Part shown: positions 3,831 through 57,555 of the stretch, in pieces
Layout of the letters: each line of letters begins with the position of its first letter
Numbering within the stretch: the first letter of the stretch is position 1
Source: Mobula hypostoma
Taxonomy: Eukaryota
Length of the DNA stretch: 64,000 nucleotides
Reading direction: 5' to 3'
NCBI RefSeq assembly: GCF_963921235.1
Contig: NC_086108.1
Location: forward strand, 58,592,001-58,656,000
Translations under genes and position numbers: made by a program
Notes under the pieces: model-generated
What the model was told of the DNA's origin: nothing
Seen by the model: only the letters and a program-made list of their open reading frames with translations
Databases searched by the model: none

Positions 3831-4895
3831 AGTGTTCATTCAGAAATCTGGTGGTGGAGGAGAAGAAGCTGTTCCTGAAGTGTTGAGTGTGTGTCTTTGG
3901 GCTCCCGTACCTCCTCTGCGATGGTAACAATGAGAAGAGGACAATGCCCTGGGAGTCATCTTTTTGAGGCATCGCCTTTTGAAAGTGTTATGGATGCTCG
4001 TGAGACTAATGCCAATGATGGAGATGACTGAGTTTACAACTCTCTGCAGCTTTTTCTGGTCCTGTGCCCCTTCACACCAGATGGTGATGCAACCAGTCAC
4101 AATGCACTCCACAATATGTCTGTAGAAATTTGCAAGTGTCTTTGATGACACACCAATTCTCCTCAAATTCCTGATGAAATATAGCTTCTTTCATGCCTTC
4201 TCTGTAATTGCATCAATACATCAGGCTCAGGATAGATCCTCAGAGACGTTCATGCTCACCCTTTCCACTTCTGATCCCTCGACGAGTTCTGGTGTGTGCT
4301 CCATCAGCTTCCCCTTCCTGAAGTCCTCATGCAGTTCCTTGGTCTTACTGAGAAAGAGTGCAAGGTTGTTGCTGTTACACCACTCAGCCAACTCATCTAT
4401 CTCATTCCGTTTGAAATTCTGCCAACAACAGTTGTGTCACCGACAAATTTATAGATGGCTTTTGAGCTGTACCTATCCACACAATTGTGAGTGTAGAGAG
4501 AGTACAGCAGTGAGCTAAGCACGCATCCTTGAGGGCACCAGTGTTGATCGTCAGTGAGAAGGAGATGTTATTTTCTATGCACACAGACTTTGGTCTCCCA
4601 GTGAGGAAGTCAAGGATCTAGTTGCAGAGGGAGGTCCAGAGGTCCAGGTTTCCGGAGCTTATTGACTAGAACTGAGGAAATAATTGTGTTGAACGTTGAG
4701 TTGTAGTCAATTAACAGCAGTCTGACATTGTATTACTATTGTTCAAGCCAATAACTATGATACCATGTCCACAAGGGACAGGGAATTGTAGATCCAGTAT
4801 TATAAAAGGCAATATCAAAGGTTTAATTGAGAGCTGGTAGTAAAAAGAGAAGAACAATCATAGAATTTTATATCAAGAATTAAAGTGATTTAGTT

Positions 4896-5477
4896 CCATT
4901 GCGTTAATCTCTTTTTTAACCAGCAACGCCACCCCACCTCCCCTTCCTTCATGTCTATCCCTCCTGAATATTGAATATCCCTGAATGTTGAGCTCCCATC
5001 CCTGGTCACCCTGGAGCCATGTCTCTGTGATCCCAACTATATCATAATCATTAATAACAATCTGCACTTTCAATTCATCCACCTTATTCCGAATGCTCCT
5101 TGCATTGACACATAAAGCCTTCAGGCGCTCTTTTACAACTCTCTTAGCCCTTTTTAATGCTTGCCCTGGATTTGTCGGCCTGCCACTTTTACTTTTCCCC
5201 TTTGTACTTTTTGCTTCTACGCTCACTTTACACCCCTCTGTCTCTCTGCACTGGTTCCCATCCCTCTGTTGTGAACTAACCTCCTCACACCTAGCCTCTT
5301 TAATTTGATTCCCACCCCCCAACCATTCTAGTTTAAAGTCACCTCAGTAGCCCGCGCTAATCTCCCTGCCAGGATATTGGTCCCCCTAGGATTTAAGTGT
5401 AACCCGTCCTTTTTGTACAGGTCACGCCTGCACCAATAGAGGTCCCAATGATCCAAAAACTTGAATCCCTGCCCCCT
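4896..5477 (-). mobile_element. Inverted 5' segment of a young CR1 LINE: end of ORF1 (SGNH esterase) and start of ORF2 (APE endonuclease)
   Basis: GFKFLDHWDLY...DGLHLNPRGTNILAGRLARATEVTLN* is followed by LCVNARSIRNK...DIVGITETWL...GYSIFRRDR...GGGVALLVK. Confidence 0.92.
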
Positions 5478-5481
5478 AAAT

Positions 5482-7985
5482 AAAACGCTGGTGGGAGTTG
5501 TGTACAGGCCACCTAACAGTAGTAGTGAGGTCGGAGATGGTATTAAACAGGAAATTAGAAATGTGTGCAATAAAGGAACAGCAGTTATAATGGGTGACTT
5601 CAATCTACATGTAGACTGGGTGAACCAAATTGGTAAAGGTGCTGAGGAAGAGGATTTCTTGGAATGTATGCGGGATGGTTTTTTGAACCAACATGTCGAG
5701 GAACCGACAAGAGAGCAGGCTATTCTGGACTGGGTTTTGAGCAATGAGGAAGGGTTAATTAGCGATCTTGTCGTGAGAGGCCCCTTGGGTAAGAGTGACC
5801 ATAATATGGTGGAATTCTTCATTAACATGGAGAGTGACATAGTTAATTCAGAAACAAAGGTTCTGAACTTAAAGAGGGGTAACTTTGAAGGTATGAGTCG
5901 TGAATTAGCTAAGATAGACTGGCAAATGACACTTAAAGGATTGACGGTGGATATGCAATGGCAGGCATTTAAAGGTTGCATGGATGAACTACAACAATTG
6001 TTCATCCCAGTTTGGCAAAAGAATAAATCAAGGAAGGTAGTGCACCCGTGGCTGACAAGAGAAATTAGGGATAGTATCAATTCCAAAGAAGTAGCATACA
6101 AATTAGCCAGAGAAAGTGGCTCACCTGAGGACTGGGAGAAATTCAGAGTTCAGCAGAGGAGGACAAAGGGCTTAATTAGGAAGGGGAAAAAAGATTATGA
6201 GAGAAAACTGGCAGAGAACATAAAAACGGACTGTAAAAGCTTTTATAGATATGTAAAAAGGAAAAGACTGATAAAGACAAATGTAGGTCCCCTGCAGACA
6301 GAAACAGGTGAATTGATTATGGGGAGCAAGGACATGGCAGACCAATTGAATAATTACTTTGGTTCTGTCTTCACTAAGGAGGACATAAATAATCTTCCAG
6401 AAATAGTAAGGGACAGAGGGTCCAGTGAGATGGAGGAACTGAGTGAAATACATGTTAGTAGGGAAGTGGTGTTAGGTAAATTGAAGGGATTGAAGGCAGA
6501 TAAATCCCCAGGGCCAGATGCTCTGCATCCCAGAGTGCTTAAGGAAGTAGCCCAAGAAATAGTGGATGCATTAGTGATAATTTTTCAAAACTCGTTAGAT
6601 TCTGGACTAGTTCCTGAGGATTGGAGGGTGGCTAATGTAACCCCACTTTTTAAAAAAGGAGGGAGAGAGAAACCGGGGAATTATAGGCCGGTTAGCCTAA
6701 CGTCGGTGGTGGGGAAACTGCTGGAGTCAGTTATCAAGGATGTGATAACAGCACATTTGGAAAGCGGTGAAATGATCGGACAAAGTCAGCATGGATTTGT
6801 GAAAGGAAAATCATGTCTGACGAATCTCATAGAATTTTTTGAGGATGTAACTAGTAGAGTGGATAGGGGAGAACCAGTGGATGTGGTATATTTGGATTTT
6901 CAAAAGGCTTTTGACAAGGTCCCACACAGGAGATTAGTGTGCAAACTTAAAGCACACGGTATTGGGGGTAAGGTATTGGTGTGGGTGGAGAATTGGTTAG
7001 CAGACAGGAAGCAAAGAGTGGGAATAAACGGGACCTTTTCAGAATGGCAGGCGGTGACTAGTGGGGTACCGCAAGGCTCAGTGCTGGGACCCCAGTTGTT
7101 TACAATATATATTAATGACTTGGATGAGGGAATTAAATGCAGCATCTCCAAGTTTGCGGATGACACGAAGCTGGGTGGCAGTGTTAGCAGTGAGGAGGAT
7201 GCTAAGAGGATGCAGGGTGACTTGGATAGGTTGGGTGAGTGGGCAAACTCATGGCAGATGCAATTTAATGTGGATAAATGTGAAGTTATCCACTTTGGTG
7301 GCAAAAATAGGAAAACAGATTATTATCTGAATGGTGGCCGATTAGGAAAAGGGGAGGTGCAATGAGACCTGGGTGTCATTATACACCAGTCATTGAAAGT
7401 GGGCATGCAGGTACAGCAGGCGGTGAAAAAGGCGAACGGTATGCTGGCATTTATAGCGAGAGGATTCGAGTACAGGAGCAGGGAGGTACTACTGCAGTTG
7501 TACAAGGCCTTGGTGAGACCACACCTGGAGTATTGTGTGCAGTTTTGGTCCCCTAATCTGAGGAAAGACATCTTTGCCATAGAGGGAGTACAAAGAAGGT
7601 TCACCAGATTGATTCCTGGGATGGCAGGTCTTTCATATGAAGAAAGACTGGATGAACTGGGCTTGTACCGTTGGAATTTAGAAGATTGAGGGGGGATCTG
7701 ATTGAAACGTATAAGATCCTAAAGGGATTGGACGGGCTAGATGCGGGAAGATTGTTCCCGATGTTGGGGAGGTCCAGAACGAGGGGTCACAGTTTGAGGA
7801 TAGAGGGGAAGCCTTTTAGGACCGAGATTAGGAAAAACTTCTTCACACAGAGAGTGGTGAATCTGTGGAATTCTCTGCCACAGCAAACTGTTGAGGCCAG
7901 TTCATTGGCTATGTTTAAGAGGAAGTTAGATATGGCCCTTGTGGCTACAGGGGTCAGGGGGTATGGAGGGAAGGCTGGGTTCTGA
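5482..7985 (+). pseudogene. CR1 ORF2 (endonuclease-reverse transcriptase) with only two visible lesions
   Basis: Open from 5482 to 7362. TGA at 7363-7365 in the VQ*DLGV context (likely CGA>TGA). The same frame continues to a 1-bp frameshift near 7668, and the last part ends at 7985. Confidence 0.9.
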
Positions 7986-8076
7986 GTTGGATGATCAGCC
8001 ATGACCATAATAAATGGCGGTGCAGGCTCGAAGGGCCGAATGGCCTACTCCTGCACCTATTTTCTATGTTTCTATG
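5482..8076 (+). mobile_element. Young CR1 LINE, non-inverted segment: ORF2, 3' UTR and (tttctatg)2 tail
   Basis: Endonuclease motifs (VYRPP, MGDFN, SDHN), RT motifs (YRPVSLTS, LDFQKAFDKVPH, GVPQGSVLGP, FADD), and a CR1-type 8-bp terminal repeat at 8061-8076. Confidence 0.95.
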
Positions 8077-9175
8077 AATCTAAGGGATGAATTCTGAAAT
8101 GTTAACTTAGATTGGGGGAATATTAAGCTGGTGTGACAATGGATGACCAGCGACTAACCGCTGAAGAATGAATATATGGCTAAAACAATTTTATACTCCT
8201 TTAAGGCACAAAAATTAAACAGGGAAAATGTCTGACCAAGGCTAACAAAAGAAGTTAAAGAAAGGATCAGCAGTAGACTGGGGATGGAAAAAACATTCAG
8301 AATTCAGTGAAAGATCACCAAGATCTTGATAAGCAAAGAGGAAGTAGAATACAAAAGTAATCAATCAAAAACAGACAAAAACAAAATGGAAAAGCTAAGT
8401 GTTTTATTTAGATGTCATTAGACTGAGAGGCATTGCCATTCTGAGGGATGTGGCTGTCCTTGAACAAAAGAAACACTGTAAATGTTTACCAGCAGGTACA
8501 GCAAGCACTTAGGAAAGTAAACAGTATTATGGCCCTTGTTGCAAGAAAATTTGAGTGCAAAAGTTAAAACATGATAGTGAAAGCATTAAGGGGCCCAGTG
8601 AGGCTGCAAGTGGAATATTGTGTTCAGGTATTGTCTCCCTGTCTATGAAAGGATACAGTTTTAATATGGTGAGTATATCAAAGTTCACCAGATTGTTTCC
8701 TGGGATGGGAAAGAGAGGGGAAATGAAGGCTTAGTTCTACAAGAGACAAAACAAATTGAGGCTATAATCCCTGGAATTTAGTAGACTGTAATGTGATTGA
8801 ATGAAACATACTGTATAAAATTCTTATAGGGCTCGATAGGGTAGATACTGTGATAATGTTTCCTCTTGTAGGGTATCAACAACCAAGGATTACAGTCTCA
8901 AAATAAAGAGGCAGGTATTCAGAATAGAGATAGGAAGATTTTTCTTTACTCAGAAGGTGGGAAATACTTAGAGTGAACAATGCAAGAGGGCAGAGACTTT
9001 GTTACTGAATATATTCAATACAGAGATGGGCAGAATTGTTTTAAGAAGAAAAATTGTAGGCATAACACATGAAGGGTTACTAAGTTAAAGATTAAACCAT
9101 AATCTTAATGAATGTTAATGCAAACATTGACAGACCAAATGGTCTGCACTTGGTTCTGTTTCTTGTTCTGTGCTC
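8077..9175 (+). mobile_element. Old CR1 LINE, host of the young CR1 (its left part lies at ~4750-4895)
   Basis: Decayed ORF2 C-terminus and 3' UTR. The sequences flanking the young insertion join into a decayed endonuclease segment. Confidence 0.65.
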
Positions 9176-15190: not shown

Positions 15191-16351
15191 ATTGCTCAAT
15201 TGAACACAAAAAACACCAATTTTATTTATCCTTTATGGAACGTATTTTCAAAGTACAAGGAAAAAAAGATGAAAATATATTTCAAATTGTAGAGAAAAAA
15301 TCACAACAATGAAATATTAACATCAGATCAGCTAATTTTAAGGATGTATTAAACTGCAGATGCTGCATTTTATTGCTTGAGGTATATTGACAAACTTAAT
15401 GGTCCACTGGGACATAAATGGATTAGCTTGAATAGAATCAATTAATGTTGGAAAGGAAACACATATTTTTCCAGAACAGCCAGAAACATGATTAAAAAAA
15501 AGATTGTTCAGAAGGGTGGATCTCTGTTTAAATTATGACATGTAGAGAAACCTAGGGCTGTTTTTCCTAATAAACAATTCCCTTGACTGATACCTCCCCT
15601 TACCCATAATCAATCACATAGGTAGAATGCTGAAAAGCTAGACCTCCAGGATAGTAATCTCAGGATTGCTGCCTGTGCTACGCGCCAGTGAGAGTAAAAA
15701 TAGGATGATTTGGCAGATGAACATGTAGCTGTTGAAATGGTGCAGGGGAGAAGGTTTCAGATTTGAGGATCTTTGGGATCTCTTCTGGGGAAAAGAACAT
15801 GTTACTCCTGACCCTGAGGAGGACCAATATCCTGGTGGACAGGTTTGCTAGAGCTCCTGGGGAAGATTTAAACTGATTTGGCTGGGAGATGGCAACCGGA
15901 ATGATAGGGCTGAAGATGGGGCAGTTGGTATACAAGTAGAAGTGTAACATGGGAGCAAAATCAAAAAGCATGATTAATACAGGGATGAAGGTGTCATATT
16001 TTTAATGCATACGGTACATAGAAAAAGGTAGGTAATCTTGAAGAACAATTAGAGATGGGCAGGTGTGATGTCTGGGCATCACTGAGTTCTGGCTGAGGGA
16101 AAGCCATAGTTAGGAATTAAACATCCAAGGATACACCTTGTAACAAAAGGACAGGCAGGAAGGCAGAGGGAAGGGTTGGATCTGTTGGTAAAAGTTGAAA
16201 TCTAATCCTTAGAGGTGACAAAGAATCAGAAGATGTAGAAACCTTGCGGGTAGAGTTAAGAAACTGCAAGGGTAAAAAGACCTTGAAGGGAGTTGTATAC
16301 AGGCCACCTAGTAATAGCCAGGTTGTGGGATACAAACTAAAACAGGAGATA

Positions 16352-16593
16352 CAGTACTGTGCAAAAGTCTTAGGCATACATACATAGCTAGAGTGCCCAA
16401 GACATTTACACAGTACTGTATAGTGATTAAAACAGGAAATGGTTGGGAAACAGAAATAAGAGTACTTAGCTTTGTTTTAGATCAATAGTATTAAGGGTTA
16501 TTTGGTAAATGGGAAGAGATAATATATAGTACTGTGCAAAAGTCTTCAGCACCCTAACTATATATATGTGCCTAACACATTTGCACAGGACTG
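16352..16593. mobile_element. Composite Tc1/mariner-type MITE: two 67-bp palindromic units in inverted orientation
   Basis: Units 16352-16418 and 16527-16593 each have cagtactgtgcaaaagtct-type termini. TA precedes the element, and the host CR1 sequence rejoins across it. Confidence 0.75.
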
Positions 16594-16635
16594 GAGAATA
16601 GGCATGTAAAAGGAGATTGTTATGATATGATATTG

Positions 16636-17258
16636 TTAGATTATGAAGACATGTAGTCCTCTTTTATTGTCATTTAGTAATTCTTGCATTAAGAAATGAT
16701 ACAATATTTCCTCTGGTGTGATATCAGAAAATATAGGACAGACCAAGACTGATAAAACTGACAAAACCACATAATTATAACATACAGTTACAACAGTGCA
16801 ACAATACCATAACTTGATGAAGAAGTCCATGAGCACAGTAAAGTTCAAAGTCTCTCAAATGTCCCACATCTCACGCAGACGGGAGAAGGAAGAAAAACTC
16901 TTCCTGCCATGCCGACCACAATCCGACTCTGAGTCATCCGAAAACTTTGAGCTCGGATCAGCTCTCCGACACCGAGTACTGAGCGCCATCTCTGTCCGAA
17001 CGATTCGACTTCCTTCTCGGTCACAAAAAGCAGGCAAGGCCAGGGATTTTGAGGCCTACCCTCCAAAAGATTCCTGACCATGCAGTAACGACAGCAGTGG
17101 ACGAGCGTTTCAGAAATTTCTCCAGATGTTCCTCTGTGCTTTCACGTTCATTCTCCATCAAATCAGAATTGTTATCGGCCCCTATTTAACAGATACGATA
17201 TCATTTTTCACTGGAGGGCTGTGCAGGCGCAGGTGCGCCACCATCTTCTCCTCCCGCC
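16636..17258 (-). mobile_element. Non-coding ~620-bp retroposon, copy 1
   Basis: Homologous over its full length to 23901-24562 and 51943-52556. Confidence 0.85.
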
Positions 17259-18514
17259 CATGATTTCAATATGGAGGTAGATTGGGAAAATCAGGTTGGT
17301 GCTAGATCCCAAGAGAGGGAATTTGTAGAATGCATATGAGATGGCTTTTTAGAGCAGCTTGCAGTTGAGCCCAGTAGGGAAAGGCAATTCTGGATTGAGT
17401 ATTGTGTAATGAAACAAATTTGATTAGGGAGCTTAAGGTAAAGAAACCCTTAGGAAGCAGTGATCATAATATGATAGAATTCTCCCTGCAGATAAAGAGG
17501 GAGAAGATAAAGTCAGATATATCACTATTACAGTGAAGTAAATGAAATTACAGAGACATGAGAGGGGAACTGGCCTAAATTGAATGGAAGGGGACACTAG
17601 CAAGGATGATGGCAGAAAAGCAATGGCTGGAGTTTCTGGGGACATTTCAGAATACACAGATGAAGATGTATTCTAAAGGGAGGCTGAGGCAACGGTGACT
17701 GACAAAGAAAGTCAAAGACAGCATAAATGCAAAGGAGAGGGCATATAATATAGCAAAAATTTGTGAAAAATCAGAGTATTGGGAAGCTTTTAAAAACCAT
17801 CAGAAGGCAACTAAAAAGTTATAAGGAGAGAAAAGGTTATATATGAAGATAAGCTAGCCAATAATATAAAAGAGGATACCAAAAGATTTTTTCAGCAATA
17901 TATAAAGAATAAAAGAAGTGTGTGAAAGTATATCAGACCGCTGGAAAATGATGCTAGAGAGGTAGCAATGGGGGACAACGAATTGCTGGAGGAACTTAAG
18001 CATTTCGCAGTAGTCATCACTGTGGAAGACTCTAGCAGTATGCCAGAAAGTACTTGGGAAGATGAAAGGTTTGAAGGTATATAAATCATCTGGACCAGAT
18101 GGACTACACCCCAGGGTTTTGAAAGAGGTAGCTGCAGAGATTGTGGAGGCATTAGTAATGATCTTTCAAGAATCTCTAGAGTCTGGAATGGTTTCAGAGG
18201 ACTGGAAAATTGCAAATGTCACTCCACTCTTTAAGGATGGGAGAGAGGTAGAAGAGAAGAAATTACAATCCAGTTAGCCTGATATCGGAGGTTGGAATCC
18301 AATAAGGATGAGGTTTCAGGGTACTTGGAGGCACATGATAAAATAGGCCAAAGTCAGCTTGGTTTCCTTCAGGGGAAATCTTGCCTGAGAAATCTTTTGG
18401 AATTCTTCAAGAAAACAACAAACAAGATAGACAAAGGAGAGTCTGTGGATGTTGCTTACTTGGAATTTCAGAAGGTCCTTGATCAGATGCTGCTCATGAC
18501 GCTGCTTAACACCA

Positions 18515-19995
18515 TAAGGAATGGAGTAAGAAGCTGGCAATTGTTAAGCGGAAAAGGTAAAGGGCTAGAGAAGAAGGAATATAATAGGAAAGGGGAGTAG
18601 ACCATGGAAGGAGGGAAAGGAGGAGGTGCACATAGAAGAGATGATAGGAAATGTAGAAAAGGTAAGAGGCCAGAATGGGGAATAGAAGTTGGGGGGGAGG
18701 GGGGGAAATAACAGAAGTTGCAGTATCAATGTTCATGCCATCAAATTGGAGGCTATCTAGATAGAATAGGAGTTGTAGCTCTTCCAAACTAAGAGTGACC
18801 TCATCATAGTGGTAGAGGAGGCCATGGATTGACATGTCAGATGGGAATGGAGATAGGAATTAAAATTGTTGGTCACCGGGAAATCCCAGCTTTTGCAGAT
18901 GGAGCAGAGGTGCTCAACAAAGCAATCCCCAATCTATGTCGAGTCTCACCAATGCAGAGAAAGGCACAGAGGGAGCATCGACACAGCCGATGATCCAATC
19001 AGATTCACAGGTGAAATGTTACCTCATCTGGAAGGACTATTCGTGGCCCTGCATGGAGGTGAGGCAGGAGATGAATGGACAGGTGTAGTACTTCTGCTGC
19101 TTCCAGGGATAATTGCTAGGCGGGAGGTTAGTGGGGAGGAATGATAGACAAGGGAATCATGGAGACAGCAATCCCTGTGGAAAACAGAGAGTGTGTGGGG
19201 TGGTAACGATGTTTTTAGTGGTAGGATCCCATTGATGATGGCAATTTTGTGGAGAATTATGTGTTGGATGCAGAGGCTCATGAAGTGGAAGGTGAGGATA
19301 TTGGAAACTCTATCCCTCTTAAGGCAATGGGAAGATAGGATGAGCATGATGCACAGGAAGTGGAGGGTGAGGGCAGCATCAATGGTGGAGGAAGGTAAAC
19401 CCCACTCTTTGAAGGAGGACACCTCTGATATCTTGGGAAAGAAAGCTGCATCTGTGATGCAGCAGACAGAAAAGTACTGAGAAAAGGGGATGGCATTTTT
19501 ACAGGACAGGGTGGAAAGAGGATTAATCAAGATAGCCTTGGCAATTAGTAGGTATATAAAAAATATTGGTAGACGTTTTTCTCCAGAGATGGAGACAGAG
19601 AGATTGAGAAACAGGAAAGAGATGTCAGAAATGGACCAAGTGAATTTAAGGGCAGGGTGAAAGTTGGAGGCAGAGTTGATTTAATTAACAAGCTCAGTAT
19701 GGGTGCATGAAGAGCACTAGTGCAGTTGTCAATGTGTTGCAGGAAGAGTTGAGGGAGCATTACTGGGGAAGGCTTGGAACATGGACTGTTCCACATAGCC
19801 AACAAAAGGGCAGGCATAGCTGGGGCTCAGGCGGGTGGCATGGCTACACCTTGAGTTTGAAGAATGTGGGAAGAGCAGAAAAATAAAGAAAAGTTGTTGA
19901 GAGTGAAGACCAGTTCTGCCACATGGCGGAGGGTGGTAGTGGAAGGAAACTGCTCAGGTCTGTTGTTGAGAAAGAAGCAGAGAGCTTTGAGGGAT
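18515..19995 (-). mobile_element. Penelope-like element (decayed RT and GIY-YIG)
   Basis: ORFs 19024-19530 (CKNAIPFSQ) and 18506-18835 (MSIHGLLY...GMNID) are homologous to the element at 21210-23126. Confidence 0.88.
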
Positions 19996-35410: not shown

Positions 35411-38400
35411 TCAAAGATTCAGTCTGTCAGGAGGCTTACGAGTGCACTGGGATCTGTGCACTACCCCCGGTGACCCAGCAGGCACCACTGGTGAGGGTGT
35501 TTTGGGTGGGTCTGGTGTTGGGGGTATGAGAGGGGTCTGTGTGTCTGTGTGAGAATGTCCATCCTCTTCAGGGGGCTCCTTTGGCAAAGTCACTGGTGGA
35601 CATGCTTCCACCATAGTCTGACTCACAAATGGAAACTCCATGGGACTGTCTGCCTCTGAGCCGGTATCATGACGCAGGCGCACATGGTCCTGATGTCTGC
35701 TGAAAACACGCCCATCAATCAACTTAACAACATAGGAGACGGGACCACTCTGCTTAAGAATAACCCCAGGCAGCCATTGCTGATTGTTTCTCACATAGAC
35801 ATTGTCATCTGGTTTTCACTGCCTCTCTCGCGCATGTTGATCATGTCCCTCCTTCTGCTTTCCCTGCTTTCTCTCCACTTCTCCCTTCATGTCTGGGCGC
35901 AGCATGTCCAATCTTGACTTGGGCCTACGCCCCATCAGCGTCTCTGCGGGAGTGCGGGCAGTCGTAGTCTGTGGTGTGAGGCGGTATTTAAACAGGAAAC
36001 GTGAAAGCCGAATGCTAAGGGAGTCCCCTGTCATCCGCTTCAGGCCTTCCTTCACCGTCTGAACAGCCGCTCAGCCAAACCAGTGGAGGCTGGGTGGAAA
36101 GGGGCCGTCCGAATGTGACGAATGCCATTCTGCTGCATGAACTCACTGAACAGCTCACTGGTGAACGTCGGGCCACTATCAGTGACCAGAGTGTCAGGCA
36201 GCCCGTGGACTGCAAACACTTGCCTGAGTTTGTCTATGGTTGAGGGGGCTGTGATGTTGCTCATGACGTGAGCTTCGATCCATTTAGAATGCGCATCTAC
36301 CATTACAAGAAACATCTGCCCCATAAAAGGGCCAAATCCAAATGTAGCCTAGACCTGGGGTGGTCTGGCCACTCCCATGGGTGCAAAGGAGCTGGCAGTG
36401 GCATATTCTGATTAGTCTGACATTGTGTGCATGATTTTACCTTGTTCTTCAGATCCTGATCCATTCTTGGCCACCAAACGTAGGCTCTTGCAAGGCTTTT
36501 CATTCGAGACACTCCTGGGTGAGCCTCATGAATTTCCTCCACAATCTGTGAACGGCCAGGGGAAGGCACGGTGACCCTCCCTCCCCAGAAAATGCAGCCA
36601 TCCTGCAGACTGAGTTCTGTCTTGCGTTTGACATAAGGCCTCAGTTCCTCTCCTTCCACGACTCTGGGCCAACCTTGTAAAAGAAAAGTCTTGACCTGGG
36701 ACAGGACTGGGTCCCTCTCTGTCCACTGCTCGATCTGGGTCGCCTTTACAGGTGTCTTTGACAGCCTCTCCAATGAAAACACAGTCTCTGGAGGCACATA
36801 TGTCGTATCAGGTGTCTCAGGTAAAGGTAGTTGACTCAGTGCATCAGCATTTGTATTATTCCCTCTCGCTCTGTACACTATAGTGTACTGGTAGACTGAC
36901 AACGTAAGAGCCCAACACTGTATCCTGGTTGAGGCTAGCAGTAGGATGCATCTAATCTCACTGAACAGGCTCATCAGTGGTTTATAGTCTGTATAAATTG
37001 TAAATACACGTCCATAAAGGTACTGATGAAAACATTTGACCACAAAAACAATGGCCAGACCTTCTTTGTCTAGCTGTGAGTATTCCTTCTCAGCAGCTGT
37101 CAGGGTATGTGAAGCAAAACCAATAGGCTTCGCTGATCAGTCCTCCATTACATGTGAGAGAACTGCCTCGACTCCATAGGGCGAGGCATCGCATGCAAGG
37201 GTGATCTCCTTGTCTGGGTCATAGTGAACGAGCAGCTTCGCTGAGTGGAGGAGTTCTTTCACATCCTTGAAAGCTTTCTTCTGCTCTTCATCCCACTGCC
37301 GCTTAGCGTCATTGTGAAGCAGCTTATACAGTGGGGTCAAAACCCCTGAGAGGTCAGGAAGAAACTTGCCATAATAATTCACCATGCCCAAAAATGATCT
37401 GAGTTCTGTGACAGTCCTAGGGCTTGGGGCTTCCTTAATAGCTCTCACTTTGTCCTCCACAGGGCAAAGCACCTCAGCTGTGATCTTGTGTCCCAGGTAA
37501 GTCACACGATGCCAGGAACACAGATTTTCTGTGTTTCAACCGCACCCCTGCGTCTGAAAGCCTCTTCAGCACCCGCTCTGCGTTAGCCAGATGCTCCACC
37601 TCCGTAGCCCTCGTGATCAAAATATCATCAAGGTACACTTCTACGTGTGGAATCCCCTGCAGCAAAGTGTCCATTGTCCTTTGGAAAATGGCAGGGCTGG
37701 ACGCCACTCCAAACACCAGGCGATTGTACTTCAATAATCCCTGTGCGTATTATTTGTGACGTACTCCTTTGAATCCTCGTCGAGCAGCAGCTGTTGGTAG
37801 GCATGGCTCATGTCCAGCTTTGTGAACAGCTTACCCCCTGACAGGGTCACAAACAAGTCATCCACCCGTGGCAATGGGTACTCCTCCAGCTCAGAGACCT
37901 GATTCACCGTAAGATTATAATCCCCACATATCCTCACCGTTTTGTCTGCCTTCAAAACTGGAACAATGGGAGCCGCCCATCTTGAAAACTGGACGGGCTC
38001 AATAATGCCCAGCCTCTGTAGACGTTCCAGCTCCTCCTCGACTTTGCCTTTCATGGCATAGGGCACCGACCTGGGCTTAAAAAAACGTGGTGTGGCCTCA
38101 GGGTTGACATGGAGTTTCACTGTCACGCCCTTCAGTGTTCCCAGCTCGTCCCTGAAAACGTCACTACACCACTGCAGAATGTCCTCCATCGTGTGTGCAG
38201 ACTTAATTTCATGCCAGTTTAGCTGGATTTTGCGAAGCCAATCGCAACCCAAAAGACTGGGCCCCCCGCCCTTAGCTATCATTAGTGGCTTCAGCTTTCT
38301 GACCCCTCGCTGCAATGTCCACATATAACACCCCTAAATGAGGTATAGGGTGTCCCGTATAGGTCCTAAGTTTGAGCTTTGACGGTCTAATGGGAGGCAG

Positions 38401-44211: not shown

Positions 44212-46337
44212 TGTTGTAATGTGAGCGTAATTAAAAGTAAGTTAATACTAATTAGGATATTGGTGGGAGTGGGGGGGGGGTCTACTTCCGTTTGTTGTTC
44301 TTCCGGTGGCCCTCGGTACATAGTGTCCCCGCCATGTTGTACGGGTTGTGAAACCTTCTGTATATACATAACGTTTTGAAGTTCGAGATAAAGTTGTTTC
44401 TTTGGCATGAAGTTGTCGAGCGTGCCTTTTTCAAAGTAGAAGTTACTACATATTTTTGGTGACGAGGTGAACTGGTTTTGTGAACGTGTGGGCACGTTTT
44501 TCGAACGGGAGTTTTCGCGTTCAGTATGGCTACGTTTGGAACTATCGGTGAATTTCTGGAAGGAAACGAGGACTGGACGGAGTATGAGGAAAGGTTGGGA
44601 CACTTTTTCTGTGCTAATGGAATTACGGAGGAGGCTAAGAAGTGCTCTATTCTCCTGAGTGTGTGTGGGGCGAAGACTTACAAGCTAATAAGGAATTTAG
44701 CCGCACCGCAGAAACAGGGGGAAATTCCGTTTGAAGAAACTGGTGAAATTCGTGGGGAACCACTACAATCCGAAACCTTCTGTGATAGTCCAAGGGTGTA
44801 AGTTTCACAGCCGTTTCAGGAAGCCAGGTCAGTCTGTGCCCAATTGTGTGGCCGAGCTTCGGCAGCTGTCCGAGCATTGTGATTCCGGAGCGGTGTTGGA
44901 AGACATGCTCCTTGATAGATTGGTATGCAGCATTAATAATGATGGCATACAATGCCACCTGTTAGGGGAAACCCCACCGCTGACTTTCAAGAAAGCCTTA
45001 GAGATTGCCCAAGGCATGGAGATGGCTGCTAATAATGTCAAGGATATCCAGAAAGGACAATGGGAGGTTGCAGTCGGCGGCAGTGCACCAAGTCAGGAGG
45101 GAGACTGGTAAATAGGCAAAGCGGGTGGAATGTTTCCGGTGTGGAGGGACGCACTATGCAAATGATTGCAAATTCAAAGACACTGTCTGCCATGCTTGTA
45201 GCAAAAAGGGACATTTAGCTAAAAAGTGCAGAAGTTCAAAGGGTAAGATGAAGCCTGGGTGGGGGAAAGCTCAACAGGCTCAGGCAGCCACACACCATCT
45301 AGAAGATGCAGATGAAGAGGCAGCGTGTGCCTACAACATGTTTGGAGTGGAAACAGATGAGGAACCACCTGAACCATATTATGCCACAGTCACTGTCAGG
45401 GGAAAGGACATTAAGTTTGAGATTGATTCAGGGGCTACTGCATCGGTCATTAGTGAGGAGACCTACAGGAGGACATGGGGGTCCAACCTGCCTCCCATTA
45501 GACCGTCAAAGCTCAAACTTAGGACCTATACAGGGCAACCCACACCTCATTTAGGGGTGTTATATGTGGACATTTCAGCCGGGAGTCAGAAGGCTGAAGC
45601 CAGGTTAGTGATAGATAAGGGCTGGGGGCCCAGTCTTTTGGGCAGTGATTGGCTTCATAAAATCCGGCTAAACTGGCATGAAATTAAGTCTGCACACACG
45701 ACGGAGGACATTCTGCAGCGGTGCAGTGACGTTTTCAGGGACGAGCTGGGCACACTGAAGGGCGTGACAGTGAAACTCCAATGTCGACCCTGAGGTCACA
45801 CCACCAGCTCCTTTGCACCCATGGGAGTGGCCAGACCACCCCTGGTCTAGGCTACATTTGGACTTTGCTGGCCCTTTTATGGGGCAGATGTTTCTTGTAA
45901 TGGTAGATGCGCAGTCTAAATGGATCGAAGCTCACGTCATGAGCAACATCACAGCCCCCTCAACCATAGACAAACTCAGGCAAGTGTTTGCAGTCCACGG
46001 GCTGCCTGACACTCTGGTCACTGATAATGGCCCGACATTCACCAGTGTACTGTTCAGTGAGTTCATGCAGCAGAATGGCATTCATCACATTTGGACGGCC
46101 CCTTTCCACCCAGCCTCAAATGGTTTGGTTGAGCGGGCTGTTCAGACAGTGAAGGAAGGCCTGAAGCGGATGACAGGGGACTCCCTTAGCATTCGGCTTT
46201 CACGTTTCCTGTTTAAATACCGCCTCACACCACAGACTACGACTGCCCGCACTCCCGCAGAAAGGCTGATGGGGCGGAGGCCCAAGTCAAGATTGGACCT
46301 GCTGTGCCCGGACATGAAGGGAGAAGTGGAGAGAAAA
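44212..46337 (+). mobile_element. Gypsy copy B: 5' LTR, gag, protease, integrase core; RT/RNase H deleted; 3'-truncated
   Basis: LTR 44212-44450 and PBS; ORFs nearly identical to copy A; junction at ~45802 joins the start of RT to the integrase core. Confidence 0.95.
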
Positions 46338-54516: not shown

Positions 54517-57500
54517 TATAAGACATATGACATAGGAGCACAATTAGTCCACTCAACCCATCAAGTCTGCTCTGCCATTTCATCATGGTTGATTTATTAT
54601 CCCTCTCAACTCCATTCTTCTGTTCCCTGTAACCTTTGAAGCCCTTACTAATCTAGAATCTATCAAAACTGCTTTAAACATAACCAGTGACTTGGCCTCC
54701 ATAACCATTTAGGGTAATAAATTCCTCACTGTCTAGTGAAAGAAATTCCTTTTCATCTCTGTTCTAAAGGGGCGTTCTTCTATTCTGAGACTCTGCCCTC
54801 TGGTCTTAGACTCTCCAACTATAGGAGACATTCTTTCCACATCTTATCAATGTAGGCCTTTCAATATCTGATAGGTTCAAGTGAGATTCTCAGGCATTTT
54901 AAACTCCAGCGAGTACAAACCAAGAGCCATCAAAAGCTACTCATATACCCTTTCATTCCCAGGATCCTTCTCATAAACCTCACCTGGACCTTCTCTAATG
55001 CCAGCACATCCCTTCTCTGATAAGGGACCTAAAATTACTCATAACACCTTGAGTGTTGTCTGACCAATGCCTTATAAGGCCTCAGTATTACATCCTTGCT
55101 TTTATATTCTAATCCTCCTGAAATGAATGCTAACATTGCATTTGCCTTCCTCACCACTGACTCAACCTGCAAGTTAACCTTCAGGAAATCCTGCAGGAGG
55201 AATCCCAAGTCCCTTTACACTTCTGATTTCTGAATCTGCTCCCTGTTTAGAAAAAACATTTATTCCTTCTAACAAAGTGCATGACCATACACATCCTTGC
55301 ACTATATAACATCTGATAATTCTTAGCTCATTCTCCTAATCTAAGTTCCTCTGCAGACTCCTTGCTTCCTCAACAATACCTGCCCCAGTACTATCTTTAT
55401 AACATCTGCAAACTTTGTCACAAAGGCATCAATTCCATCATCCATGTCTTTGACACATAATGTGAAAAGAAGCAGTCCCAATACCAAGCTCTGTGGATTA
55501 CCACTAGTCACTGGCAGCCAACAAGAAAAGGCTCCCTTCGTTCCCACTCTTTGTTTCTGACAGTCAGCCAATTTTCTATCCATGCTAGTATCTTTCCTAT
55601 CGTACAACAGGCTCTTTTCTTGTTCAGCAGCCTCATGTGTGTCACCTTGTCAAAGTCCTTCTGTTGGTTTCAGAAGGCCCTTGATAAGGATCCACACTTG
55701 AGGTACTCTCCTTTGTCTATCCTGCCTGCTATTTCCTCAAAGAAATCCAACAGATCAGCCAGACAAGATTTTCCCTGCTAGCTTAGGCTTATTTCATCAT
55801 ATCACTCCAAGTACCCTGAAACCTCATCCTTAATAATGGCCTCCAACATCAAATCAACCACTGAAATCAGACCAACTGGCCTATAATTTCCCGTCATTTG
55901 CTTTCCTTCCTTCTTGAAGAGTGGAGTAACATTTGCAATTTTTCCATGATCTAGAACCCTTGCAGAATCTAGTGATTCTTGGAAGATCGTTACCAGTACC
56001 TCCACAATCTTTTCAGCTACCTCTTTCAGAACTCTGGGTGTAGTCCATCAGGTCCAGGTGATTTATCTATCTTCAGACCTTTTAGCTTCCCAGCACCTTC
56101 TCCTTGTTAATAACAATTGCACTCTTTTCTGTCCCCTGACATTCTTGAATTTCTGGCATACTGCTGGTGTCTTCCATGGTGAAAACTGATGTATCTATTC
56201 TGCACCTTCTGAATTCCCCTCAGAAATTCCACCCATTGCTGTTCCACTGTCGTCCCTGCTAGTGCCCTCTTCCAATCAAATTTGGCCAGCTTCTATCTCA
56301 TGCCTCTGTAATTCCTTTTACTCCTCTGTAATACTTATATATCTGACTTTATCTTCTCCGTCTCAAACTGCAGAGTGAATTCCATTGTATTCTATCATAT
56401 TCTGCTTCCTAAGGGTTCCTTTACCTTAAGCTCTCTATCAAAATTGGCAACATCCAATCTAGAATTGCTTTTCCCCTAGTGGGCTCAACCACAAGCTGCT
56501 CTAAAAAGCCATCTTGTAGGCATTCTATAAATTACCTCCAGCACCAACCTGATTTTCCCAATCTACCTGTATATTGAAACATCCCATGATTATTACAACA
56601 TTGTCCTTTAAAATGCCTTTTCTATCTCCCATTGTAATTTATACCACATCCTGGCTACTCTTCAGAGATCTGTGTATAACTCCCATCAGGGTCTTTTCAC
56701 GGTTGCAGTTTTTTAACTCTTCCACAATGATTCTACATCTTCTAATCTGATGTCTCCTTTTTCTAAGGATTCAATTTAAATTTGTTACTAGTCAAGCTAC
56801 TCCACCCCATCTGCCTACCTGTCTGCCCTTTTGATACAGGGTGTATCCTTGGATGTTAAGCTCCCAACTATGATCTTCTTCCTGCAACATCATACCTTCT
56901 AATCTTTAACTGTTGCAAGATCAACTATCTTATTCTGTAAGCTGCTTGCACTCAAATATAACAACTTCAGTACTGTATTTATCACACTTTCTAAATTTGC
57001 ACCCATGTTCCTACAAGTTAAATCCTTATTCCTTTCTAAACCTTTTGCATTTTTATTTATTCTGGAGACTTCTGTAACTTTACCTGCATTTTTTTAAAAT
57101 TTAGAGATACAGGGCAGAATAGGCCTTTCTGGCCCTTCGAGTTGTGCTGTCCCAGCAATCGCCTTCAACTCTGATTTAATCCTAACTTAATCAAGGGATA
57201 ATTTACAATGACCAGTGAACTTACCCGGTACGTCTTTGGACTGTGGGAAGAAACTAGAGTGCTCCTTCTCTTTCACATTATCTTCACTTTTTGAAACTGT
57301 TGAACTGTTGAGCATACTGTTTAGTTTAAAGACACACTTTAACCCACCCCACTGAAGGCAATTTTGCCCTATCTTCTGCCTAACCCTCCTCACAATCTCA
57401 TAACACATTGCATCTACTTGTATACCAACTGTCCCATCAGTCAGATTCCCATGTCCCTGCCAGATTAGCTTAAACCCTCCCCCAACACTTCTAGCAAACC

Positions 57501-57555
57501 TGTCCACAAGGATATTGGTTCCCCTAGAGTTCAGGTGTAACCCATCCTTTTTTGA
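54517..57555 (-). mobile_element. CR1 LINE from the ORF1 end to the tail, decayed, with a V-SINE at ~57095-57270
   Basis: KKDGLHLNSRGTNILVDRFARS (ORF1); GNYRPVGLISV; KFADV; tataagacatatgacata tail. Confidence 0.85.

Follow-up and report, generated by a model that had tools for sequence, protein, structure and literature searches.

The ORF1/ORF2 junction of LINEs with an esterase ORF1, presumably of CR1 type, probably acts as a programmed -1 ribosomal frameshift signal that would yield an ORF1p-ORF2p fusion; the underlying junction signal is real and old. In the window (the whole stretch of 64,000 nt analysed, from Mobula hypostoma, NC_086108.1, positions 58,592,001 to 58,656,000), one such junction, hereafter the focal copy, read AGG TTT GCT AGA GCT CCT GGG GAA GAT TTA AAC TGA over 15841-15876. 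The first-pass annotation had read TTTAAAC at 15867-15873 as an in-phase U_UUA_AAC before TGA, and the window sequence agreed: the heptamer has the form X_XXY_YYZ, in phase with the upstream ORF. ORF2 (PF03372, PF14529 and PF00078) sits in the -1 frame. Esterase-ORF1 CR1 LINEs of vertebrates and of more distant animals may, moreover, share an ancient signal of heptamer, stop and G5 (10-nt spacer) that would drive structure-independent -1 frameshifting stimulated by a protein or by ribosome contact, a wider reading that is held tentatively and at somewhat under even chances.

Table 1. Positions of the junction features in the focal copy and in the two other junction copies of the window.
Feature	Position	Strand	Support
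Focal copy: decayed ORF1 3' remnant (SGNH/GDSL esterase C-terminus), ending ...GEDLN	15615..15873	+	tblastn to esterase ORF1 proteins, 15615-15794 and 15790-15873
Putative slippery heptamer U_UUA_AAC (final base of codon -3, then the Leu and Asn codons)	15867..15873	+	
ORF1 stop (TGA here; mostly TAA in related contigs of three runs)	15874..15876	+	
Candidate stimulator at +11 to +15 past the heptamer, 10-nt spacer (GGGAG here; GGGGG in most relatives)	15884..15888	+	
-1 frame (linker start), 26 codons open, stop at 15945-15947	15867..15947	+	
Copy-specific linker deletion point (74 nt shorter than the third copy; frame shifted)	15940..15941	+	contig loose ends
AUG (AAC ATG G) in endonuclease frame, about 20 codons ahead of the first endonuclease motif	15949..15951	+	
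ORF2 endonuclease and RT remnants, decayed and interrupted	16072..18516	+	tblastn, 16072-16176, 16256-16354 and 17241-18516
Young copy: junction TTTAAAC TAG (heptamer 5331-5337; G run 5320-5315)	5328..5337	-	
Young copy: -1 frame, open from two codons 5' of the heptamer through the endonuclease N-terminus	4873..5343	-	PF03372
Third junction copy, subfamily of the focal copy (TTTAAGC TAA at 57474-57465)	57290..57552	-	

The junction joins ORF1 and ORF2 of a LINE that, judged by its architecture, is presumably of CR1 type. ORF1 homologues matched PF13472 (Pfam scan), in line with the SGNH esterase ORF1 of the CR1 clade. In ORF2, an APE endonuclease followed by RT (PF03372, PF14529, PF00078) was found in the window pieces and in the related loci L004 and L039, and the window RT was 44% identical to the ORF2 of both. 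A short tandem 3' tail (GATTCTAT-like octamer, which we take to be the CR1 3' tail motif) was present in L004, and TTCTATG repeats were present near 8060-8080; the focal copy had no 3' end in view. The esterase is already known from CR1 ORF1 and is likewise found in ORF1s of RTEX and Penelope-like elements (PMC3905857). In the chicken genome, no repeat is more abundant than CR1 (PMC11835228).

The heptamer was not enriched in the window (9 TTTAAAC matches vs. 11.65 expected); its significance lies in its placement immediately 5' of the ORF1 stop and not in its abundance. Two of the nine matches were at an ORF1 end (focal and young copies), and the remaining seven were ruled out as ORF1 junctions. 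A near-identical pair of an unrelated repeat, also with TTTAAAC, lay at 35925-36083 (+) and 46121-46279 (-). The focal copy is dead, with a 74-nt linker deletion and stops, and serves only as a record of the signal. The idea that it joins two subfamilies as a chimera was rejected in favor of an internal deletion, based on contig alignments and comparison with the third copy.

The young junction read ACT TTA AAC TAG and was 63-68% identical to the focal one. The first 146 codons of its -1 frame were free of Met. The -1 frame had been said to read FKL-x-W-x-G-x-G-N in both copies, and did so (FKLIWLGDGN in the focal copy vs. FKLEWLGGGN in the young copy). The young junction piece (4895-5486, -) adjoined an oppositely oriented endonuclease-RT piece (5487-8080, +) with TTCTATG repeats at its end; the pair looks like a single insertion with a 5' inversion, and no target duplication was evident by eye. 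The third copy was 74% identical to the focal junction, and its heptamer position (57468-57474, minus strand) was one base off, TTTAAGC. Its -1 frame was open through the linker for 46 codons, up to an insertion, and the element resumed near 57007. Because this linker is open, the -1 frame of the subfamily, as assembled from two decayed copies, appears to reach the endonuclease. The linker insert was about 320 nt long (57010-57335, -). The string LKCVF in the third copy was rejected as the endonuclease start and marks the insertion boundary.

Contig pile-ups together with related loci were used as a proxy for a genome-wide subfamily table. Contigs from four of 24 runs (X1, X2, X6 and X10; 2368, 164, 1792 and 1804 contigs, respectively) aligned to 15780-16010 at 80% likeness; X2 may be RNA and may come from the source of the window DNA itself. 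Position 15866 was G in the majority (85, 80, 83 and 91% of depth), giving the codon GGU (Gly), so the GAU of the focal copy is its own change. Position 15875 was A in 70, 88, 74 and 22% of depth, and UGA was common only in X10. Among the variants listed, none fell in 15867-15874, but depth dips there, so that this is not a per-site count. Position 15887 was G in 86, 91, 90 and 44% of depth, and about 44-46% of the X10 depth at 15886-15887 departed from G5, which counts against a universal G5. Over 15861-15893, X10, from another organism, held a set of high-depth variants (TGA stop retained, G run disrupted) that may or may not be linked and might represent a separate subfamily or a dead copy that was amplified. 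Loose ends behind 15855 (73, 60 and 54 contigs; agreement 0.64-0.75) gave TTTAAACTAA. Loose ends behind 15940 numbered 152, 15, 135 and 128 in the four runs, and most contigs extended with sequence missing from the focal copy.

These majorities modify two contrasts drawn in the first-pass annotation. The preceding codon had been given as GAU against ACU in the young copy; a U-ending codon and a family-level contrast (GGU vs. ACU) hold, but GAU is specific to this copy. For the stop, given as UGA against UAG, the family-level contrast is UAA vs. UAG, and UGA is a minority in three of the four runs. The constraint that had been deduced, acting on the heptamer at the nucleotide level and on the -1 frame, is supported mainly by data beyond the focal copy; the two contrasts largely reflect the decay of a single copy and are weak as independent support for it.

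Alignment-based searches gave 46 loci in host DNA within metagenome and MAG assemblies; the junction was present in 22, and the remainder stopped short or lacked it. With the three window copies this made 25 junctions in about 7 lineages, although the boundaries between lineages are blurred and one assembly supplied 7 of the loci. The loci formed a bird-like set (best match to swallow or other amniote proteins) and a more distant set that is probably invertebrate. Codon choice was assessed on the 25 junctions and on 18 places within a single assembly. TTTAAAC was exact in 22/25 junctions; the three that deviate, L013, L016 and the third copy of the window, are all decayed. The first three U were kept in 25/25, and the preceding codon (S, C, Y, A, F, T, D or G) always ended in U. 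The seventh base was C in 23/25. The stop directly followed the heptamer in 21/25 (TAG 17, TAA 3, TGA 1). Among the 160 Leu codons of the ORF1 body TTA accounted for 12%, and AAC for 44% among the 48 Asn codons; the chance of the whole heptamer was about 0.01-0.04 per lineage. Codons of the D-G-x-H-L motif, used as a control, varied synonymously (Leu as CTG, CTT, CTA and TTA; Gly as all four). In the one assembly, the heptamer was retained at 17 of 18 distinct places (24 rows, 30 loci, six duplicates), which partly overlap the loci of the 25 junctions. The heptamer is thus conserved at the nucleotide level beyond protein needs.

At the protein level, the best named ORF1 homologues of the focal copy were from rays and a skate, and the Leu-Asn C-terminus was present in all 12 close homologues, one with a short extension. 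A larger set of 162 proteins comprised these 12 and 150 best representatives (50% clustering); 101 in which a catalytic-His motif could be recognised 20-45 residues before the C-terminus were counted and 61 were dropped. Esterase ORF1s ended in LN in 57/101, in QGN in 8/101 and otherwise in 36/101, the last a point against the frameshift reading. The LN end lay 25-39 residues past the catalytic motif, and this variable distance ties LN to the stop and not to the fold. The residue before LN was K, E, Q, M or W, whose codons never end in U, in 1/57 proteins vs. 9.3 expected (binomial 0.0005, a generous value as the sequences are related). Named LN carriers include rays and a skate and, among 20 proteins looked up, one snake, two lizards, one turtle, one swallow and one eel. 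The QGN end would fit G_GGA_AAC, and the KN of one family A_AAA_AAC; both, with U_UUA_AAC, are among the shiftiest heptamers (PMC5009743). Proteins with QGN or KN ends were P0069, P0075, P0076, P0084, P0086, P0092, P0094, P0161 and P0143; these could come from RTEX or Penelope-like elements. Among 8000 candidates, no long fused relative of the QGN class was found, which is weak evidence. Further ORF1 C-termini were FFR, FFH, EN and SN. The esterase ORF1 P0163 carried the source label "prefoldin subunit 5", probably a mis-annotation.

Since Leu-Asn-stop is invariant at the protein level, the heptamer could be a by-product of protein constraint, from the ORF1 C-terminal Leu-Asn alone or combined with Phe-Lys-Leu in the overlapping frame; by the genetic code, reading LN* in frame 0 and FKL in frame -1 would determine 6 of the 7 bases. 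However, frame 0 leaves TTA, AAC and the upstream U unfixed, and the seventh base, free under dual coding, was yet C in 23/25. Dual coding would also need entry to the -1 frame from upstream, but 5' of the heptamer that frame closed within 6 codons in 15/25 junctions and an upstream AUG was present in only 2/25. This closure confines entry to the heptamer. Protein constraint as the source of the heptamer is therefore largely refuted and highly improbable.

At family level the -1 frame continued downstream of the heptamer into endonuclease-RT, over 962 codons in L039 and 953 codons in L004; in the dead focal copy it did not. Linkers were 34-72 residues long, with 8-36% identity between main groups vs. 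37-50% at the endonuclease start. Ahead of the endonuclease motif, an in-frame AUG was lacking in 8 of the 13 junctions that reach it, including the young copy, and present in 5/13. In five bird-like loci an AUG was at +2 or +5 (L001, L002, L004 and L032, 2 nt past the stop; L028, overlapping the stop), and the focal and third copies had in common the strong-context AUG at 15949-15951 (N-M-G), so that their subfamily gives less clean support to frameshifting than the AUG-less young copy.

These AUGs, in L001, L002, L004, L032 and L028 beside the stop and at 15949-15951 in strong context, are what would be expected if ORF2 were reached by termination and reinitiation at a nearby AUG or non-AUG codon, with the heptamer and G5 acting as a termination/reinitiation signal or being the relic of an older frameshift, replaced or supplemented by an AUG in some lineages. 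Such reinitiation has precedent in SART1 and L1 (PMC5972666), and the fold and duplex scans described below revealed no pseudoknot. Against it, the AUG varied in position whereas the heptamer was conserved, 8/13 junctions offered no in-frame AUG 5' of the endonuclease motif, and the exact heptamer persisted in AUG-bearing lineages; reinitiation requires neither an X_XXY_YYZ heptamer nor a fixed -1 register. As a general account of the junction it is unlikely, although it may be active in AUG-bearing lineages, and in the bird-like ones that keep the heptamer two routes to ORF2 may coexist.

Structures 3' of -1 frameshift sites typically lie at 5-9 nt (PMC7618472). No conserved downstream fold was found in 38 folds of 13 junctions (z between -2.2 and +1.5), nor did scanning 14 junctions for duplexes give a long-range partner at a common position. 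Likewise, no stable stem-loop or pseudoknot was found 5-9 nt downstream; the folding program omits pseudoknots, yet no C-rich partner of the G run was found. The conserved element was instead the G run itself, with G at +11 to +15 in 22/24, 23/24, 24/24, 21/23 and 22/23 junctions, respectively. Two of the five coincide with third positions of -1-frame codons, where background G was 31-67%. With these two synonymous positions kept and the surrounding linker unconserved, the G run looks to be constrained at the RNA level.

A conserved G run could belong to some other RNA signal, and hnRNP H/F bind G runs. The heptamer, stop and G5 would in that case act as a splice acceptor that yields an mRNA for ORF2, as a site of packaging or protein binding, or as a site of transcription slippage. 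As a splice acceptor, TTTAAACTAG has an AG end in 17/25 junctions, but AG is missing from the TAA and TGA lineages, the subfamily of the focal copy included, and the variation in stop codon is useful for this reason. No long homopolymer run was present, Rfam gave no match near threshold, and the position of the motif was tied to the frame and stop of ORF1, all of which leave another RNA signal quite improbable.

Under -1 frameshifting, the preferred reading, the majority of ribosomes would terminate ORF1 at the stop, and a minority would shift back one base on U_UUA_AAC, bypass the stop and translate the linker into endonuclease-RT. The predicted product is an ORF1p-ORF2p fusion (...Leu-Asn-Leu...) made at a low fixed ratio, comparable to Gag/Gag-Pol. 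The adjacent stop and the single-stranded G5 10 nt downstream, not a pseudoknot, would probably cause the pause.

Retroviral and coronaviral -1 frameshifting (U_UUA_AAC in IBV) involves the identical heptamer and phase, and there too a polymerase ORF in the -1 frame lies 3' of a structural ORF (PMC5009743). Unlike those sites, the CR1 junction lacked any conserved stem-loop or pseudoknot 5-9 nt downstream and its 0-frame stop abuts the heptamer; CR1 is also a non-LTR element, and the Pfam scan gave no protease domain. The PRRSV nsp2 protein-stimulated site resembles the junction in having no obvious structure, a short single-stranded motif and a 10-nt spacer (PMC4937337), and by analogy G5 is hypothesised to work like the PRRSV motif. 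The latter, however, is C-rich, bound by nsp1beta/PCBP and follows a different heptamer, whereas the CR1 motif is G5. Among retroelements, Dictyostelium TRE5-A and TRE3-A are APE-type LINEs said to need a -1 frameshift for ORF2 (PMC5911963), but are of a different clade. Two-ORF Penelope-like elements can have ORF1 separated by a frameshift (PMC8557442), some with an SGNH esterase (PMC3905857); these have GIY-YIG and a pseudoknot, unlike the APE endonuclease-RT and lack of a conserved fold here. SART1 and human L1 are bicistronic LINEs whose ORF2 depends on ORF1 translation (PMC5972666), but they use termination-reinitiation and make a separate ORF2p, whereas the CR1 signal predicts a fusion. 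A +1 frameshift has been suggested for Paramecium LINEs.

Translation of LINE ORF2 has been called an open question (PMC3894237, PMC2881922), and the tested cases reinitiate. A CR1 frameshift proposal was not found in the literature searched; a prior remark could sit in supplements or Repbase notes. "CR1" was absent from the part of PMC5009743 consulted, and the passages of PMC4255032, PMC13708176, PMC5405496, PMC7175516 and PMC5408684 drawn on here did not propose such a frameshift. If the conserved frameshift is true, this CR1 group would have a retrovirus-like control of enzyme dose with fused ORF1p-ORF2p, and AUG-annotated ORF2 starts would often be wrong. G5, if functional, would be a new kind of stimulator.

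Contig scans found no relatives in viral contigs, and a sample of 399 scored genomes of one order contained no carrier beyond the assembly already known. A 17.8-Mb bacterial MAG had 28 matches to animal LINE ORF1 (L038-L046, G001), which represents host contamination in a reference genome set.
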